Below, one piece after another: positions 24,184 to 40,054 of a stretch of DNA of 64,000 nucleotides; positions within the stretch are counted from its first letter, which is position 1, and every line of letters starts with the position of its first letter. This DNA comes from a virus. A program made the translations under genes and the position numbers. The notes under the pieces are model-generated. The model was not told the origin of the DNA. It made no database searches and worked only from the letters and a program-made list of their open reading frames with translations. The DNA lies in IMG/VR virus record IMGVR_UViG_3300022555_000009; one strand, written 5' to 3'.

Positions 24184-24963
24184 ATGAGAGGTAACATGAC
24201 ACTTATACTGACATCAGATATACACTATGGCCACAGCACTCTCGGCGATAAGTCCTTGTTTAAGGTGATCGATGAAATCAAGACTAAAAGTCCAGATGTT
24301 CTTATTATAGCGGGTGACTTTGGGTCCTCCTCCGAAGCAGAGCGAGCGGACTTTCTCCGAAGAATGAGAGAGGACCATGAGTTCAGTGCTCCTGTAGGTA
24401 TTGTAAATGGGAATCATGATTTTTGGGACTGGGATGGAGTTCGAACTAGCGCTGAAGAAGTATCGGCAATAAATGATTCCTTTTTTCTTCATAGGAATAT
24501 CACTCATCTTCAAGAGAAGGATATGGTTACCGGTAATGTAGTCATTACCGGATTCGACGGTTGGTACTCGAGTGATCCTCCCGTCAACGACCCCAGGTAT
24601 ATTCCAGGCTATTCTCGAGGAGGAAAGGAGTGGCTTAGGACTCGGGCTGAGACGGGCTTTGCTAGATGCCTAGGTACTTGTGCGGCAGCTAAGGCAGGTG
24701 GAAAAACTACTGTCATAGTTACGCACTTTGGATTCTTCGATCACATAAAGGATTGGAAGTCTGGAACTATGAGAAACTGGGGCGCCGAGCCTGACTGGTT
24801 TGGGGGAAATCCCAAGTGGGAAGATTTCCTGGGGGACGTCGATTATGTTCTCTTTGGGCATTCCCACCGAGCTTTCGATGGTCTTTCTAAGAATGGTCAC
24901 ACACGGTTGATCAATTGTGGTAGCGATTATAATAATCCCAAGTACGTAGAGATTAAGATGTGA
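24184..24963 (+). CDS. Calcineurin-like metallophosphoesterase
   Basis: SDIH, AGD, GNHD, VTH, FGHSH. Confidence 0.9.
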   Translation: MRGNMTLILTSDIHYGHSTLGDKSLFKVIDEIKTKSPDVLIIAGDFGSSSEAERADFLRRMREDHEFSAPVGIVNGNHDFWDWDGVRTSAEEVSAINDSFFLHRNITHLQEKDMVTGNVVITGFDGWYSSDPPVNDPRYIPGYSRGGKEWLRTRAETGFARCLGTCAAAKAGGKTTVIVTHFGFFDHIKDWKSGTMRNWGAEPDWFGGNPKWEDFLGDVDYVLFGHSHRAFDGLSKNGHTRLINCGSDYNNPKYVEIKM

Positions 24964-26944: not shown

Positions 26945-27832
26945 ATGTCAGATGTTCTTAATCGTAGACTGAGGGGTTCAGATCATAGTCTGGACCCCTA
27001 TTTCTCTGTAAAAAGAGAGAGGCTACTTACTTCCAGTGGTGAGTATGTGGGATTCGATGCCCTCATCAATTCAAAACTCAACAAGACGCTCAGTGTCGTG
27101 GGAGAATCCTATCACTTCGTTCCTCACAAAACGGCATCTCAGACGGTGCATGATTTTCTCGACGCGACAAAACTTAACTACGTGATTAAGTTTATTAGAA
27201 CCGCCGCCAACGGAGCTCAGTACTTCGAGGTCATCGAATTCCCAGATCTGAAGTTCGAGGTTCTACCGAAGGGAAAGGATACGTCCTTAGACGCTGACAA
27301 GCATAAGCCAGACGAGTACGTGCCCACCATCACTGTTCGTAGCTCCTACGACAAGTCCTACCCGACTCAGTTTGCCTACGGCGCTTTCCGCTACATCTGC
27401 ATCAACGGGGTAATGGTTGGAATCGATATCAGTAAGCTTTCGATTCGTCATAATCAGAAACTCGTGGTCGGAGACGTCCAGAATAGCTTCGAGGAGAACC
27501 TCGAGAAGTCTATCGAAAGCTTGAAGGTTAGAATTCCTGAGCTCAACGAACTTGAGGGTCAGGAATTCGCTGAAGAGTTCCTTTTCAACAGGACCCTTCC
27601 TGCTAAGTTCAAGAAGGATATTGTAGAGATGGCGGGACCTGCAATCTCTAGCTACTACGACACTATGACTTCACCTTCTGGTCGCACGAAGCAGGTTCTG
27701 AAGTCCATCGATACGGACATGTCTGCTTACGCAGTCATGAATATCATCACCAGCCTTGTTTCCCATAAGGCTAAGAACGCTGCAAAGCAGCAGGGAATGT
27801 ATAATATGGTGGCTAAAGTCTTTGATCTTTAA
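26945..27832 (+). CDS. DUF932/DUF945-like protein
   Basis: LSVVG..Y..V.H, SYD, AFRYICINGV, IRH. Confidence 0.7.
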   Translation: MSDVLNRRLRGSDHSLDPYFSVKRERLLTSSGEYVGFDALINSKLNKTLSVVGESYHFVPHKTASQTVHDFLDATKLNYVIKFIRTAANGAQYFEVIEFPDLKFEVLPKGKDTSLDADKHKPDEYVPTITVRSSYDKSYPTQFAYGAFRYICINGVMVGIDISKLSIRHNQKLVVGDVQNSFEENLEKSIESLKVRIPELNELEGQEFAEEFLFNRTLPAKFKKDIVEMAGPAISSYYDTMTSPSGRTKQVLKSIDTDMSAYAVMNIITSLVSHKAKNAAKQQGMYNMVAKVFDL

Positions 27833-28694: not shown

Positions 28695-31600
28695 TTAAAA
28701 ATCTGTAATTTTTACGAATGGTGCTGATGTGTCAGTATTCTTTTTAGAGGCTATGAGCCACGACGTAGCTAGGTCATCTAATAGATTGTCATTTTTAGCC
28801 TTAGCGAATAATTCTCCATATACTAGGATTTGAAAAGTATTAAGAAAAGTTCTCATTTGATCAGGAGTTACTTTTTTAGGATTTGAGAACTGAGCAAGAT
28901 AGTCTTTCAGATCTGAAGCCTCATAGCGAACTCCCGGAAGCATTTTTTTAACAACTGAGGCTTTTTTAGAAAAATCTATCAGCACTTCTGGCGACAGTGT
29001 TTTCCACTTGGCCGTATCTACTCCATTGGGTTTATGCATCCCATACTTCGCAAACCACTCAGCAACCTCTGGAGATCCCGTTGCCTTGCCTAAAGCAGCT
29101 TGGGCTCCTTTTTTCTTAAACTCTACTGTTACAGATCTGACCTCCGAAGAATTACTACCAATTCTCACGGTGTAGTCTCCGGATCCATTTAAATCTTTCA
29201 TGACACCAGTTACTGTTACTGTTCCTAGATTAATAGGAAAAGAAATGAATTCTAGTTTAGGTAGAATGTGAGACTCTGGATCATCTCCGTACTCTACTTT
29301 TGCGGCCTTTTTAACTTTCTTTAAGCTAACCCCAATAATAGTTTTGCTCTCCAAAGCTTTAGCTAAGAAGTCATTTACTAACTGTAATTTTTCTTCTTTA
29401 GAATCGGTCGAATTTCCTATTCTCTCGAAAACACTGCGAATGTTATCTAGCTTAGTAGATTTACATATATAAATATCCGATGGATTCCAACTATCTGCAG
29501 ATTTAAATCCCAAAGAAGTGGCCATGTGTTTTACTAGGTCGTGTATATCTCCACCGGCAGTTTTTGGGAACGTTGTCCGGCCCCTAGAGTAGATATACTC
29601 TTTTCTATTTCCTATCCATTTAGTAAAAGCTCTAGCAGATTCAGTTATGGAATGATGCCACCCCTTGTCGCAATCAGGAAATAATTTCTGAAGTTCTTTC
29701 AGAGAAGCTTCTACTCCTAATTCGTTTAATTTATATAAAGCAAACGCTGTAGCAGTCTCCTGCTGCTCTGTTCTAGCCGTGGCGTCGCCCATCTTATTTC
29801 CTACTCCAGGGGTTGGTTTAAACTGGAGGGAGAAGGGATCTAAGGAAGGATCTTCTATGACAGGTCTATCACCTATTTTCATTACATGAATATGTAACTT
29901 AGCTGCAACTAAGTCAGCTGCTTCATTTCTATCAATGCCTGCGGTTGACCTAACATTCAATCTGATCTTTCCATCTTTACTATTTACCTTCTTAATAGTC
30001 TGCAGATTGTTCTTTGCTAAGAATTTATCCATTTGGTCTTGGGTCGTTTTTTCCTTTAAAGATTCGTGTACCTGCTGGAAATTCAAGGCAGAGAAAGTCA
30101 ACCTGTCTACCAGTTTTATTATATTTCCGTCGATATCAGATACGGCGAAACCCTCTTGTCCGGTCAGCTTGAATGATCCATCAGGTTCCCGTATGAAGGG
30201 AGTCACTCTAGGTAAATTATTTAACTTACCTATCAGGTAGTTCTTTAATTCAACAAGTCCAGCTTGAAACATAAGTAGGTTGCCGAATTCCTCTCGTTTT
30301 GTTTGTCCAAAGTATTCCTGCACACTCGCTATTTTAGACTTCGCTGAGTAATTTTCTGGTAGCCATTTCAAAAATTCTTCCACATATTTATTGATATCTC
30401 CGAACTGGAAATTCTGGCCTACGCCGTAATTTTCAAATCTGATCAATAGGTCTCTTAAAGTAGGCTTTGCAGCTACCTCATTAGCGAAGTCTTTACACTT
30501 TTCAAAAGCTTCTGATGTCTTGTTCTGCAATCCGACGCACTCATAGGATTCTTCTTCAGTTAAGGTTACTTTGCCAACCAGGGAAGGCAGATTAGAGTCT
30601 ACCGCAAATAATCCTTGCACAGGATTTAATTTAGATATATCTACATCTCCGAAAGACTTTGTTTCGGCTGCTGTCCTTAAGTCATTACCCCTTACGATTG
30701 TATGGAAGGCAACACCGGCATCACTAGATAAGATTCTCTGACCCAGATCCGTGTCTATTTCAACAGCGTACGTTAAGGTGTTAGGTGTAAATATAACCCA
30801 TTGCTTACCCTGCTCATCCGTTCTTTGTTCTAGGTCTTCCTTTGTGAATAAGAAATCGCCGCACCATAACTCGCCATCAGGAATTCCTAATTGAGGAATA
30901 TAATGCAAAGAGATTTTCAATTCATTAGCAAGGTTAGGCTTATCTCCATATCGTGCGTCTATCTCTTCATCAGTTTGAAAAATCTGCGGCTGCTTGGGAG
31001 AAAATGTATTCTTCATACCGACGAAAGGCCCATTGACACCAGGATAATTATTACCGAATACTGTAAAATGAGAACCATCCCATTTCATAGTAGCAGTGAC
31101 TTCTTCTTCAGGGGTGTTGCCTTGTAGCTCCGAAAATAAAGAGCCGAGGTAGCGCATAGCCTTCTCACCGCCAATGGCACCTTCGTTGTATACAAGATCC
31201 TCTATGTGAGGGATATTAGCTCCACCTTTCTCGTTGAGCTCATCTACTTTTCCAAGCCCTTGGCAATAAGAGCATTCGACTACTTCTCCGTTTAATTTTT
31301 GCCGGGTACCTTTGCCCTGGCATACAGGACACTTACCTACCATCTCTGTCAGCCCAATAGGTGCTTTCTGATGCGTCAAGAAATCGTCAACGTAAGCTCT
31401 AAAATTCTCAGCTAGATCAGGGGGGAATGTCTGCTTTACTTTATCCCAAATATATTCTAAGGGCTGCACTAAGTCTGTTGCGGTCCAGGGTTCACTAGAC
31501 TCAGAAGAAATAAGTCCTGCTACCTCATCTGGATTCGTTATCAAAGGGATAGAGGGATCTTTCTTCCCATTCGCATCTCGCTTAAAGACTCCTTGATTAT

Positions 31601-33935
31601 TTATGCCATAGCCTAGTTGTTTCATGATAGCTGCAAGAGCCCCTACTCTTCCAATAGGGCCATACTTAGACTCACCAAGGCCAAATCCAGCATACTTAAA
31701 TGACAACCAGTTAAGCTCACCTAGCATTAAGTCTATCTGAACATGCTTGTCTGTCTCATTACCGGCCTCATCGAATTGAGGAAACAATACACTCACCTGA
31801 TTAAATCCTACAGATGGTGCACACTTAAAGCCTTCTTTTTCAAAAGCTGCCGTTATAGTTTTCAGATCTAAATCGCTTTGTACGCCTAAGTCGATATCTC
31901 CATTGTCAGGTTTCTTACCTGTAGATCCGATAGGCCGGTACTCAACTCCAGGTATGAGTCTTTGAAGAAAAGGGTCGAATTTCTCCAAAGTTGGCAGAAT
32001 ATATTCTCTCTTAATCCTATCACCGGAAACGGCGTGACCGCCCTCGACATAGTTTTCTAGAGAAGTGTATAATGATAATAACTCTTTTGCAGAATGCTCC
32101 TTTAAGGACAGAGCTAAATCATACATAGGTATGGATAAAGTTTCCGAGAGGTAAGTCAGTAGCTCATTGCGGATTGCTGTAGATTCCTGCACACCTAAGC
32201 CGTCTCTTGTTGCTTCAAACATTTCCATAGCTAATTCTTTATCATCAGCTGTTATACGCTGGAATTCTTCAAAGTTACCATCCATTGCGGCGTTGCGTGC
32301 TTTCGTAGCAGAGAATCCGTTGACGTCGTTTGAGTCTGGATCTCTATCTCCGGTTGAAACGACCTGAATGGAATTAAATACGTAATATCCGTGGTTAGAT
32401 TGTACATCATTATACTTTTCACATTGTATCTTTAACTGAGCCACAGCATCTACGTCCTGGTAAATGATAAGATCAGTATACTTCTTATTGTAGAACCATA
32501 CGAGAGCCTCGAAAATCGTAGTCACTTCAGGGTCTGCTAAGACAGTTACACCTTGAGGAACCATCCTCGATAAGAAATTGACCTTCTGTTCCCAGGATAG
32601 GGGATTCTTTTTCTGATCATGAGAGTGGGTAGTCAACACATAAGCATCTGTCTGATACTTCTTAGCTGTTTCGAGAACGATATTGAAAGCCTTCATGTGC
32701 CCCTTGGTAGGAGGATTGTAGCGGCCCCAAATAAAGGTAGCTTTCTTCTTAGGCTCATCTTCGACAGCTTCATCTAAGTTTTTTGATATAACCTTTCCAT
32801 TAGGCCCATCTATATCAATATCGACTGATTTTCTATCTTTTCCATTGATATTGAATTTCTGAAGCATGTGAGGGTACTTTCCAGGATGAGCTACAGCGTC
32901 TAAACAGAACCTAGCTGCCATCTCTAGGCCGGGCTTCAAAGCATCTTTTGCGTTGGGACCTATTTTCGCCCCATATAGAAGGGATTCAACATCCTGCTTA
33001 TCTTTTGGTGTGACTTCGAATATAAAGTCCTTAGGATCAAACCCAATTCCACCCTTGGCCCAGTATGCTTTCGCCACCCCTGGTCCTAATTCTACCCAGA
33101 TCTGATTATAATCAGGTGTCACGTATCCTTTGGTGGCTTCTCGTTTTATATTGTTCATTAGTTCCCCTGGTTCCTCTTCTTGTTCCTTAGGTGCTTCTTC
33201 TGTTGGCACACCCTCTTGTTCCATTTCTACGGGCTCGGTATTCTGCTCAGGTTCTTCTACTTGCTGCTGTTCTATAGGTTGTTCCTGCTCTTGTTCGATT
33301 GGTCGCTCTTCCTCAGGTTCTTCCAAAGGAATATTTTGAGGGACTTTCTTCAGTAGGGATTGCGCAAACTGGTTGAGGTAGAAAGATAGATTTTTAACAA
33401 CTTGATAAGTATGCTTATCAAGTAAAGTACTTCCGTGCCTTGCATTCCACTTTCGCGGAGCTATAGTAGTAGGGAATAAGGATGCGTTTTTCTGAGACAA
33501 GTTATAATTAAATCCCTGATAATGGAATGAAGGGCTGTTGGACCATAGCTTAATGCTGCATTTCTTGAAGGCGTTTACCACACCCTCTTTATTTAGCTCC
33601 CACCCATTATCATTCATCGTTTTCTGCATTGGGAAAAACCCTACCCATACTTCATATAATTCGGAAGGATCATCCTGAAGTTTAAAAGTGGCATTATCCA
33701 CGTCTTTATAGTCATATTCATCCCCATACTTATGTGTGGAGTTAACTAAAATTTTGAATATGGCTAGATCTTGATCTGCGTTGTATATTGAGCTTATGAA
33801 TTTAGAAGATTTGGTCGCCGGTCCTTCTATGGTATATCTCTCATCGGATGCCATTTGTATCGCACCAGATACTGGAGAGCTCGCGATCTGATTGAGGGAC
33901 AGGTCCTCGTAGATTAAATGCATTTTACGTGTCAT
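28695..33935 (-). CDS. 1746-aa multidomain (polyvalent) late protein: HxGH nucleotidyltransferase, pol-beta NTase, Zn finger, KWDG (DUF6267-like) domain, PD-(D/E)xK-like domain
   Basis: WGRYNPPTKGH/KNPL/FSATKAR; IGSTG..GDIDL; CPVCQGKG..CSYCQGLG; HIEDL..KWDG..EGF..KLVDR; QQE..WNPSDIY..GVSLKK. Confidence 0.8.
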   Translation of the reverse strand: MTRKMHLIYEDLSLNQIASSPVSGAIQMASDERYTIEGPATKSSKFISSIYNADQDLAIFKILVNSTHKYGDEYDYKDVDNATFKLQDDPSELYEVWVGFFPMQKTMNDNGWELNKEGVVNAFKKCSIKLWSNSPSFHYQGFNYNLSQKNASLFPTTIAPRKWNARHGSTLLDKHTYQVVKNLSFYLNQFAQSLLKKVPQNIPLEEPEEERPIEQEQEQPIEQQQVEEPEQNTEPVEMEQEGVPTEEAPKEQEEEPGELMNNIKREATKGYVTPDYNQIWVELGPGVAKAYWAKGGIGFDPKDFIFEVTPKDKQDVESLLYGAKIGPNAKDALKPGLEMAARFCLDAVAHPGKYPHMLQKFNINGKDRKSVDIDIDGPNGKVISKNLDEAVEDEPKKKATFIWGRYNPPTKGHMKAFNIVLETAKKYQTDAYVLTTHSHDQKKNPLSWEQKVNFLSRMVPQGVTVLADPEVTTIFEALVWFYNKKYTDLIIYQDVDAVAQLKIQCEKYNDVQSNHGYYVFNSIQVVSTGDRDPDSNDVNGFSATKARNAAMDGNFEEFQRITADDKELAMEMFEATRDGLGVQESTAIRNELLTYLSETLSIPMYDLALSLKEHSAKELLSLYTSLENYVEGGHAVSGDRIKREYILPTLEKFDPFLQRLIPGVEYRPIGSTGKKPDNGDIDLGVQSDLDLKTITAAFEKEGFKCAPSVGFNQVSVLFPQFDEAGNETDKHVQIDLMLGELNWLSFKYAGFGLGESKYGPIGRVGALAAIMKQLGYGINNQGVFKRDANGKKDPSIPLITNPDEVAGLISSESSEPWTATDLVQPLEYIWDKVKQTFPPDLAENFRAYVDDFLTHQKAPIGLTEMVGKCPVCQGKGTRQKLNGEVVECSYCQGLGKVDELNEKGGANIPHIEDLVYNEGAIGGEKAMRYLGSLFSELQGNTPEEEVTATMKWDGSHFTVFGNNYPGVNGPFVGMKNTFSPKQPQIFQTDEEIDARYGDKPNLANELKISLHYIPQLGIPDGELWCGDFLFTKEDLEQRTDEQGKQWVIFTPNTLTYAVEIDTDLGQRILSSDAGVAFHTIVRGNDLRTAAETKSFGDVDISKLNPVQGLFAVDSNLPSLVGKVTLTEEESYECVGLQNKTSEAFEKCKDFANEVAAKPTLRDLLIRFENYGVGQNFQFGDINKYVEEFLKWLPENYSAKSKIASVQEYFGQTKREEFGNLLMFQAGLVELKNYLIGKLNNLPRVTPFIREPDGSFKLTGQEGFAVSDIDGNIIKLVDRLTFSALNFQQVHESLKEKTTQDQMDKFLAKNNLQTIKKVNSKDGKIRLNVRSTAGIDRNEAADLVAAKLHIHVMKIGDRPVIEDPSLDPFSLQFKPTPGVGNKMGDATARTEQQETATAFALYKLNELGVEASLKELQKLFPDCDKGWHHSITESARAFTKWIGNRKEYIYSRGRTTFPKTAGGDIHDLVKHMATSLGFKSADSWNPSDIYICKSTKLDNIRSVFERIGNSTDSKEEKLQLVNDFLAKALESKTIIGVSLKKVKKAAKVEYGDDPESHILPKLEFISFPINLGTVTVTGVMKDLNGSGDYTVRIGSNSSEVRSVTVEFKKKGAQAALGKATGSPEVAEWFAKYGMHKPNGVDTAKWKTLSPEVLIDFSKKASVVKKMLPGVRYEASDLKDYLAQFSNPKKVTPDQMRTFLNTFQILVYGELFAKAKNDNLLDDLATSWLIASKKNTDTSAPFVKITDF

Positions 33936-33983
33936 AGTTAATTAGTAAATTAAAAAAGCCCGACATAACATCGGGCTTTGTTT

Positions 33984-39327: not shown

Positions 39328-39507
39328 ATGGATGCAGTTTCTAGTTTTAAAATGTGGATTGCTGAACAATTAGAGGAAGGCTCCCTTGTCACTTCCTGGG
39401 ATGAAAGCTTAATGGGCCTTGGCGAGGAGTATATGGTTGATGAAAGTGAAATGGATGCCGTGATACAATTCGCCGCTAGGTTGGCTCAGAGTCTTCGGCG
39501 AAAGTAA
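39328..39507 (+). CDS. Small putative internal head protein (59 aa), not in the track
   Basis: AGGAG RBS; N-terminal SFKMWIAE resembles the T4 capsid-targeting sequence; TATAAATA upstream. Confidence 0.55.
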   Translation: MDAVSSFKMWIAEQLEEGSLVTSWDESLMGLGEEYMVDESEMDAVIQFAARLAQSLRRK

Positions 39508-39508
39508 G

Positions 39509-40054
39509 ATGACTATTCTAATCGAAGGTGTTCCAGAGGATGCTCTAGTAACAGCTACCAGGGCTCACTCTGGACAATTTAGAAGAGGAGGCGCTCCTTA
39601 CATATCTCACCCCGCACGAGTTGCTCAGCATGTACAACGTGTGAAAGGCGACTCTCATAAAGCTGATGACTTAATAGCTGCGGCCTATCTTCACGACACC
39701 CTCGAAGATACAGATATGACCGAAAAGCAGATTCTCGATCAATTTGGTCCTAACGTCCTTAATCTCGTATTTGAATTGACTTCCGATGAGGAAGAGCTGA
39801 AACGGCTAGGTAAAACTGCATATTTACAAAAGAAGTTTTCGGGTATCAGTAGCTGGGCTTTAGTTATCAAATTGAGTGATCGCTTAGATAATGTGTCGGA
39901 TCTTCTTGACGCTGATTACGACTGGGCTCTGAAGTATGCCAAGCAAACCCAAGACATACTAATTTACTTGATCGAGCATAGAAAACTAACGAGCACACAA
40001 AAAAGATTAGTAGGAGAGATACAGGAGATTTTAGACGAATTTTATAAGAAATAA
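39509..40054 (+). CDS. HD-domain (p)ppGpp hydrolase-like protein (SpoT/Mesh1-type small alarmone hydrolase)
   Basis: AHSGQFRRGGAPYISHP, AAYLHDTLEDT, KLSDRLDN. Confidence 0.85.
   Translation: MTILIEGVPEDALVTATRAHSGQFRRGGAPYISHPARVAQHVQRVKGDSHKADDLIAAAYLHDTLEDTDMTEKQILDQFGPNVLNLVFELTSDEEELKRLGKTAYLQKKFSGISSWALVIKLSDRLDNVSDLLDADYDWALKYAKQTQDILIYLIEHRKLTSTQKRLVGEIQEILDEFYKK

Follow-up and report, generated by a model that had tools for sequence, protein, structure and literature searches.

On the minus strand of a 64-kb window of DNA from an uncultured lake phage (the window being the whole stretch analysed, 64,000 nucleotides of IMG/VR virus record IMGVR_UViG_3300022555_000009), an open reading frame (ORF) at 28695-33935 encodes a 1746-aa protein that, judging from comparison with relatives, might be a capsid-targeted ejection polyprotein, packaged in the phage head, cut into its modules and injected with the DNA, a reading to which we give slightly less than an even chance. 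Packaging and cleavage are plausible because of the conserved junctions between modules, of leaders resembling capsid-targeting sequences (CTS) and of virion evidence in relatives, and for the DUF6267/transferase family as a whole head-internal, protease-processed ejection enzymes are the best-supported account. The original prediction, made from this DNA alone, had proposed such a packaged and dismantled toolkit, with a SWIM-like domain, an HxGH transferase, a pol-beta nucleotidyltransferase (NTase), a DnaJ-type zinc finger, a KWDG ligase-like/DUF6267 domain and a PD-(D/E)xK-like nuclease; sequence, AlphaFold models and conserved motifs bear out the ORF and nearly all of these domains.

Junctions, leaders and virion detection

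An exhaustive HMMER search with aa 900-1746 returned 1,596 cluster representatives, and module architectures were surveyed in the best 150 of these together with the other relatives fetched. DUF6267 occurs alone, before or after the C-terminal domain, after a family-X polymerase-like (PolX) domain or before the transferase; other proteins run from the N-terminal domain through the transferase to the C-terminal domain, and both the N-terminal and PolX domains are also found by themselves. In two contigs from IMG/VR, the gene after that of a PolX-DUF6267 protein is transferase-like, and among cultured phages (T4-like cyanophages, a pelagiphage, Methylophilales phages and a Stenotrophomonas phage) the genes for DUF6267 and the transferase are either neighbours or fused. 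The domains are separate genes in other T4-like phages, which answers a question raised with the original prediction, and in cyanophages these genes bear leaders. Pfam scans of 17 long relatives found, beyond DUF6267, only ART-PolyVal, DUF5662 and CTP_transf_like, and one metagenomic relative (P0046, 1921 aa) combines DUF5662, ART-PolyVal, DUF6267 and part of the C-terminal domain in a single polypeptide. ART-PolyVal marks the polyvalent proteins, for which Iyer et al. (2017, PMC5512222) predicted packaging, processing and injection.

The family-wide conservation of a junction motif is far above chance. All 37 internal DUF6267 domains are preceded, at most 17 aa upstream of their HxxHxED start, by [LIVMF]-x-E (random windows give 10.6 +/- 2.8), and the motif is specific for Glu, since the same windows hold a version with Glu in third position in 37 cases, with Asp in 7 and with Lys in 9. 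P1' is most often Ala, and P3 is mostly Leu (22) or Ile (8), as in T4 and unlike phiKZ-type phages, which have small P3 residues (Ser, Ala or Gly). The distance from this site to the start of the domain varies between 2 and 14 residues, in linkers that are otherwise variable and disordered, which argues against a fixed structural element. The same motif precedes 10 of 11 internal transferase starts (4.0 +/- 1.6 expected), and every PolX-first protein starts M-x(1-13)-h-x-E-GG (h, hydrophobic), that is, with a short leader followed by an invariant GG.

Leaders of stand-alone proteins tell a similar story. The T4 CTS is MKTYQEFIAE (PMC8442874), in which residues 4 and 7 serve targeting and residues 8 and 10 processing (PMC9026906). 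M-K-x-[FY]-x-x-[FY]-[LI]-x-E is a very frequent start of stand-alone DUF6267 proteins, whose conserved positions (aromatic 4 and 7, aliphatic 8, Glu 10) are precisely these T4 determinants. The strict pattern M..[FY]..[FY][LI].E is present in 21 of 96 DUF6267-first proteins against 0.78 in shuffled N-termini; it is found in 0.9% of the phage's own ORFs and is 27-fold enriched in the stand-alone DUF6267 relatives. Junctions and leaders can even be alike in sequence, the internal junction of relative P0084 (QLIE|SKEGKNL) being nearly identical to the N-terminal leader of relative P0105 (YLSE|SKEGKNL). The leader of the window protein, MTRKMHLIYE, has the length of the T4 CTS and places I8 and E10 at the T4 processing positions, while N-termini of relatives read MKTITQQFIE or MKLLLE.

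Transferase homologues have repeatedly been detected in virions. S-SZBM1 ORF140 (PMC9146016) and S-CREM2 ORF154 (PMC10665884) were found by liquid chromatography-mass spectrometry in CsCl-purified particles, as were, in CsCl-purified virions, the homologues of S-SCSM1 (ORF91) and S-CBWM1 (PMC9602691). The proteins of S-SCSM1, S-SZBM1 and S-CREM2 match our hidden Markov model (HMM) of the transferase domain at E-values of 1e-50 to 1e-62. Cyanophage transferases also have the aromatic targeting residues, and leaders are seen in S-SZBM1_140 (MRFRQFIIE|A), SSCSM1_91 (MKSFLQFLKE|A) and the homologues of P-SSM2 (MKSFSQFLTE) and S-SM1 (MKKFSAFLNE). The transferase gene adjoins a DUF6267 gene in S-SZBM1 and a C-terminal-domain gene in S-SCSM1. 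The latter, the stand-alone SSCSM1_90, matches the C-terminal-domain HMM at 1.2e-21 and is labelled 'virion protein' in GenBank; the former, S-SZBM1_141, has no leader and was not named in the text or tables of the S-SZBM1 proteomics paper in a term search (PMC9146016). S-SZBM1 ORF139, considered as a relative of the C-terminal domain, was dropped because no homology was detected. The NMNAT-like 'cytidylyltransferases' of S-SCSM1, S-SZBM1 and S-CREM2 share a homologous transferase domain with the window protein, which differs in that its modules are fused and a PolX-like domain is added, theirs being separate genes.

CTS-like leaders also occur in several neighbouring genes of cultured phages, within gp126-gp132 of Pelagibacter phage HTVC008M, in gp066 and gp068 of DLP_6 and in gene 192 of S-SM1 (e.g. 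MLSFTGYSNLSE|A, MTRYTKTMAE|A and MLSFKELQE|K), and judging by these N-termini the whole DUF6267/transferase cluster may encode internal head proteins. Prochlorococcus phage P-SSM2 has a gene annotated as 'tRNA ligase' (L015:5340-5876) 2 kb downstream of its transferase homologue.

Modules of the 1746-aa protein

Two AlphaFold models were built from alignments of natural relatives. That of aa 900-1746 (847 aa) has a mean predicted local distance difference test (pLDDT) of 90.6 and that of aa 1-905 a mean of 77.9, with confident domains and disordered linkers; the linkers carrying the predicted cleavage sites are disordered in both (Table 1). The catalytic residues of the domains are invariant across relatives. 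The acidic linker, the domain at aa 255-395 and the CxxCxGxG finger are insertions missing from the closest full-length relatives (37-46% identity), the aa 255-395 domain being common only to P0023 among the relatives compared and the double finger being unique to the 1746-aa protein. A phmmer search of the whole protein against PDB sequences gave no true match, and domain-library scans found no peptidase domain within it.

Table 1. Features of the 1746-aa gene and its flanks, in window coordinates
Feature	Position	Strand	Remark
N-terminal leader MTRKMHLIYE (10 residues), candidate capsid-targeting/cleavage leader	33906-33935	minus	aa 1-8 pLDDT <50
N-terminal domain, aa 11-197	33345-33905	minus	pLDDT ~90
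Acidic disordered linker, aa 198-254	33174-33344	minus	pLDDT 29-40; missing in relatives
Insert domain, aa 255-395, fold not recognised, ends NLDE|A	32751-33173	minus	low-confidence model
HIGH-motif (TKGH) nucleotidyltransferase, NMN/NaMN-adenylyltransferase-like, aa 396-587, ends VQE|S	32175-32750	minus	
Helical connector, aa 588-631, ends YVE|GG	32043-32174	minus	AlphaFold model
Minimal family-X DNA polymerase-like domain, palm and thumb, aa 632-864, ends LTE|M	31344-32042	minus	
Linker with two CxxCxGxG zinc-ribbon repeats, aa 865-902, ends LNE|K	31230-31343	minus	pLDDT <50
DUF6267, polynucleotide ligase-like adenylyltransferase domain, aa 903-1295, ends LKE|K	30051-31229	minus	
Small alpha/beta module, aa 1296-1374	29814-30050	minus	
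C-terminal domain, aa 1375-1746, candidate PD-(D/E)xK-type nuclease	28698-29813	minus	
Hairpin and T-run terminator, end of upstream gene	33952-33978	minus	read from sequence
Hairpin and T-run terminator 3' of stop codon	28657-28689	minus	read from sequence
ACTAATTA promoter-like motif, 11 nt 5' of ATG	33939-33946	minus	enrichment and spacing

The predicted HxGH transferase is present, with GRYNPPTKGH at aa 404-413, a C-terminal FSATKAR (matching (T/H)xGH and SxTxxR) and, in the model, the Rossmann-like fold of HIGH-motif nucleotidyltransferases. It scores 17.2 bits against Pfam CTP_transf_like (cut-off 21) and matches a PHROG cytidyltransferase at 2.5e-42. By structure it is closest to nicotinamide mononucleotide (NMN) and nicotinic acid mononucleotide (NaMN) adenylyltransferases, NMNAT and PPAT lying within 1 Z unit of each other, and the model points to an NMN-adenylyltransferase-like domain. 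An NAD-salvage operon was dropped from consideration, as the genome has neither Nampt nor LigA.

What had been called a pol-beta NTase is, on its modelled palm and thumb fold (Foldseek E 5e-8), a minimal family-X DNA polymerase. G670, S671, D680, D682 and D735 are invariant in relatives (GS...DxD...third Asp), with a Ser-to-Asp spacing that matches pol beta, and the domain aligns over ~166 aa to pol beta against ~93 aa to CCA-adding enzyme or TUTase. No Pfam polymerase or NTase family matches it at E up to 1. Also invariant is E631-G632-G633. As regards the 8-kDa and helix-hairpin-helix DNA-binding subdomains, PolX-first relatives have nothing upstream of this EGG; in the 1746-aa protein the helices of aa 543-627 do fall inside long Foldseek alignments, but with a root-mean-square deviation of ~14 Å.

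For DUF6267, the predicted ligase-like nature is matched by an adenylyltransferase fold, recognised with VIA-align, and by motif I, K951-W-D-G (KxDG), in which K, D and G each reach 90% conservation or more across 60 sequences. D1027 (GDFLF), E1261-G1262 (EGFAVS) and K1274 (KLVDR) are invariant and follow in the order expected for motifs III, IV and V, for which they are candidates. The oligonucleotide/oligosaccharide-binding (OB) domain with motif VI is absent, DUF6267 stopping ~15 aa past motif V, where the small alpha/beta module follows. Foldseek with the 847-aa model gave weak matches only, a profile of the DUF6267 and C-terminal-domain alignment found no true match among PDB sequences, and one of 60 members matches RNA_lig_T4_1 weakly; on the model, DUF6267 would be an RNA-ligase-type polynucleotide ligase-like domain. 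No sequence-level relation to Naegleria gruberi RNA ligase (Rnl5), T4 Rnl2 or T4 Rnl1 was detected, and unlike these it has a large helical insert (aa 1127-1238). Since the phage also has a conventional ATP-dependent DNA ligase at another locus (L011, genome 63784-65073, Pfam DNA_ligase_A_M at 2.2e-20), the DUF6267 domain is best viewed as a second, specialised enzyme, and the idea that it is the phage's missing replicative ligase was dropped.

The C-terminus, predicted to be PD-(D/E)xK-like, has a conserved signature. E1393, H1465, WNPSD1487, N1521, G1535, SLK1539, E1605 and G1616 are invariant and E1548 nearly so (14/16), which gives a conserved E...PSD...SLK...E, and in the AlphaFold model D1487 and K1539 sit at strand ends. 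The domain is therefore a candidate for the PD...SxK...E variant of the nuclease, with an S-x-K and downstream E that resemble those of Cfr10I and NgoMIV. A protein language model points to RE_HpaII (HpaII-type endonucleases) with a lead-level score of 0.87. Among the matches listed for the whole-model fold searches, none lies over aa 1375-1746.

Two smaller assignments concern the N-terminal domain and the DnaJ-type finger. The N-terminal domain has a confident fold and no Pfam match, its only link to SWIM is a language-model lead (a cluster in which 16% of members carry SWIM, score 0.87), and the CxCxnCxH ligands of SWIM are absent, the Cys positions being Ser or Asn (WSNSPSF...LDKH); possibly it is a SWIM-derived nucleic-acid-binding module. 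It also occurs in stand-alone 205-aa proteins and as a fusion to the transferase. The DnaJ-type finger does have two CxxCxGxG repeats (CPVCQGKG and CSYCQGLG, aa 865-897), which Pfam DnaJ_CXXCXGXG matches at E 0.025 with a score of 15.3, under the cut-off of 32.7.

Transcription unit and neighbouring genes

The 170,592-bp source record has terminal repeats and encodes, besides its DNA ligase, rIIA/rIIB and intein-bearing terminase and UvsX genes; a nucleotide search of a phage collection gave no match. The 1746-aa gene forms a separate monocistronic unit between two terminators. It is preceded by the octamer ACTAATTA, the most enriched word in the upstream regions of the genome (13 observed vs 0.6 expected), with no Shine-Dalgarno sequence between octamer and ATG. 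Because the identical 11-nt spacing from ACTAATTA to ATG is found at six genes, M1 is supported as the start codon, and the combination of this spacing with the lack of a ribosome-binding site at these genes suggests leaderless mRNAs. Other copies lie 24-45 nt upstream of a gene with a Shine-Dalgarno sequence in between, and ACTAATTA occurs at ~50 further genome sites (e.g. window 60136, 35892 and 8692; L004:13839), which makes it look promoter-like and phage-wide.

That the gene is 'late', as it had been labelled, finds no footing here. TATAAATA, the T4 late box, shows no enrichment in the window and is missing upstream of the gene, and a T4 late promoter was dropped on these grounds; ACTAATTA gives no 'late' timing either, because it precedes not only the head-protease candidate and baseplate genes but also ribonucleotide reductase and transposase genes. 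The transposase gene (L004:13850-15097; phrog_506, 1.6e-109) stands behind ACTAATTA at the 11-nt spacing and appears to be a mobile element that has adapted to the transcription of the phage.

A few kb downstream of the 1746-aa gene, on the other strand, are genes for a metallophosphoesterase (phrog_1649, 3.9e-22) and for a DUF932 protein (24184-24963 and 26945-27832), the first of which might work with the ligase by healing ends. Elsewhere in the genome, capsid-targeting-like leaders are seen in a 59-aa ORF (window 39328-39507, MDAVSSFKMWIAE|Q), an HD hydrolase (window 39509-40054, MTILIE|G) and a 206-aa ORF (L007:8434-9054, MTLLVEFNQFLKE|Q), which on these leaders are candidates for further head-internal proteins.

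Competing readings and significance

In the mechanism proposed here, the N-terminal leader would take the 1746-aa protein into the prohead, and the head-maturation protease would cut after the Glu of the L/I/V-x-E site before each module (predicted after E10, E389, E587, E631, E864, E902 and E1295). The pieces, namely the SWIM-like binding domain, the NMN-adenylyltransferase-like enzyme, the family-X polymerase, the DUF6267 ligase and the PD-(D/E)xK-like domain, would be injected with the DNA and would trim, fill and seal breaks or gaps of the incoming genome ahead of all phage gene expression, while the transferase may supply the ligase's nucleotide cofactor, possibly NAD+. This role is proposed because the PolX, ligase and nuclease-like set resembles the repair sets of bacterial LigD, which unites polymerase, phosphoesterase and ligase in one protein, or of African swine fever virus (ASFV), which has a Pol X and ligase pair. 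By this analogy, gap filling and sealing of the incoming genome would be the most likely function, and the parts look more like such a DNA kit than the tRNA-repair or signalling kit originally envisaged. LigD has a polymerase of the archaeo-eukaryotic primase type and a DNA ligase with OB domain, unlike the family-X polymerase, Rnl-like ligase without OB and different nuclease-like domain seen here.

The proposal also borrows from known head cargo. Like T4 IPI-III and Alt, the protein has a short N-terminal leader ending in (L/I)-x-E and, like Alt, it would be an enzyme carried in the head and injected; unlike the small, basic T4 internal proteins, it is a 195-kDa chain of at least five modules with internal sites. 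As in the polyvalent proteins (PMC5512222), many unrelated catalytic domains share one phage polypeptide, but there is no in-cis peptidase and the domains would fit a single pathway better than a set of disparate weapons; a term search of that paper did not bring up the set of PolX, DUF6267 and NMNAT-like domains.

Several observations weigh against packaging and cleavage, or against parts of the proposed pathway. Although all seven quoted hydrophobic-x-Glu motifs are present, the enrichment claimed for them within the protein vanishes once composition is counted, [LIVMFY]-x-E occurring 40 times against 40.2 +/- 5.1 in shuffles and the linkers holding 10 copies against 8.3 +/- 2.2 (P = 0.30). 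The protein's own leader lacks aromatics at positions 4 and 7 (K4, L7). EGG and HxxHxED, both invariant, might be conserved as structural elements and not as cleavage determinants, an argument weakened by the fact that stand-alone leaders end at exactly these Glu. No gp21-family (Pfam S77) protease was found in the genome, in a search whose control was likewise silent; the sole candidate is a phrog_207 'head maturation protease' (3.9e-11, genome 41409-43034), which has no BLAST or PDB matches. In phiKZ, 201phi2-1 and SPN3US, a diverged gp21-like protease cuts many head-internal proteins after Glu (PMC9026906). Virion evidence comes from relatives, and the proteomics authors themselves caution that soluble proteins, if abundant, may be carried along during virion purification (PMC9146016, PMC10665884, PMC9602691). 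The transcription unit stands apart from recognised head genes, and the DUF6267/transferase genes of the cultured phages, cyanophages included, adjoin the replication genes gp41 and UvsX as well as MazG. Lastly, the nuclease fold of the C-terminal domain is unconfirmed, and the need for a second sealing enzyme beside a conventional DNA ligase is unexplained.

The strongest competitor, which we nonetheless consider rather unlikely, draws on several of these points. It holds that the protein is an intracellular, uncleaved multi-domain repair enzyme, LigD-like and cytoplasmic, which never enters the capsid and fills and seals replicating or damaged phage DNA. A monocistronic unit away from head genes, homologous clusters beside gp41, UvsX and MazG, a motif density equal to chance and the lack of a recognised gp21-family protease would all be expected, and cooperating enzymes can be fused without any proteolysis. 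Against it stand the CTS-like leaders, 27-fold enriched in stand-alone relatives, the Glu-specific motif at 37 of 37 junctions, the appearance of the transferase homologue in several virion proteomes and the GenBank label 'virion protein' on a C-terminal-domain homologue.

All this packaging evidence is shared equally by a further possibility, to which we assign a low probability: that the protein loses its leader alone and is ejected as one giant multi-enzyme chain, in the manner of N4 virion RNA polymerase or of polyvalent proteins, which are often delivered intact (PMC5512222). With fusion, the polymerase, the ligase and the nuclease would stay side by side at a single DNA end, and the mature PolX domain may need the invariant EGG at its start. 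Conservation of L-x-E|A sites in variable, disordered linkers is, however, hard to explain unless the sites are used, and the near identity of the P0084 junction to the P0105 leader also weighs against this possibility.

Equally improbable to us is that the target of the same parts is not phage DNA but RNA, with tRNA or mRNA being repaired once host anticodon nucleases have cut it, or else NAD+/nucleotide pools (countering NAD-depleting defences), an alternative that is favoured by the RNA-ligase-like shape of DUF6267, by the NMNAT-like shape of the transferase, by the DNA ligase already in the genome and by the role in NAD metabolism proposed for the transferase by cyanophage authors (PMC9602691), but which is at odds with a partner that is a family-X polymerase with palm and thumb rather than a CCA-adding enzyme or TUTase, with the lack of a kinase or phosphatase end-healing module in the protein and with the lack of a Nampt gene.

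Capsid-targeting leaders, Glu-specific head proteases, polyvalent proteins and the virion detection of the cyanophage 'cytidylyltransferase' are already known. A full-text search found no paper mentioning DUF6267, and we found no description of (i) its ligase fold, (ii) its association with a minimal PolX and with a nuclease-like domain, (iii) the CTS-like leaders of the DUF6267/transferase cluster or (iv) the conserved junction sites in fused forms.

Very abundant phages of the sea and of fresh water have DUF6267 and the cyanophage 'cytidylyltransferase' among their core genes, yet what the two do is unexplained; our analysis suggests placing both in a single module, alongside a minimal family-X polymerase and a nuclease-like domain, that probably yields an injected set of nucleic-acid repair enzymes. 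If this holds, a new class of phage-head cargo would be defined and the repeated puzzling proteomics matches would be explained. A DUF family with ~1,600 cluster representatives would then gain a fold and a probable activity, and small natural polymerase and ligase scaffolds would be on offer. A bolder generalisation, which we advance only tentatively and with considerable doubt, is that many aquatic myoviruses (the abundant T4-like cyanophages and pelagiphages among them) inject a capsid-borne DNA repair machine made up of a family-X polymerase, an Rnl-like ligase, a nuclease and an NAD-type adenylyltransferase, of which the window gene would be the fully fused form, cut by the head protease at conserved Leu-x-Glu sites. 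If true, nicks, gaps and broken ends, which sunlight, packaging or host nucleases could cause, could be mended before phage genes are read.

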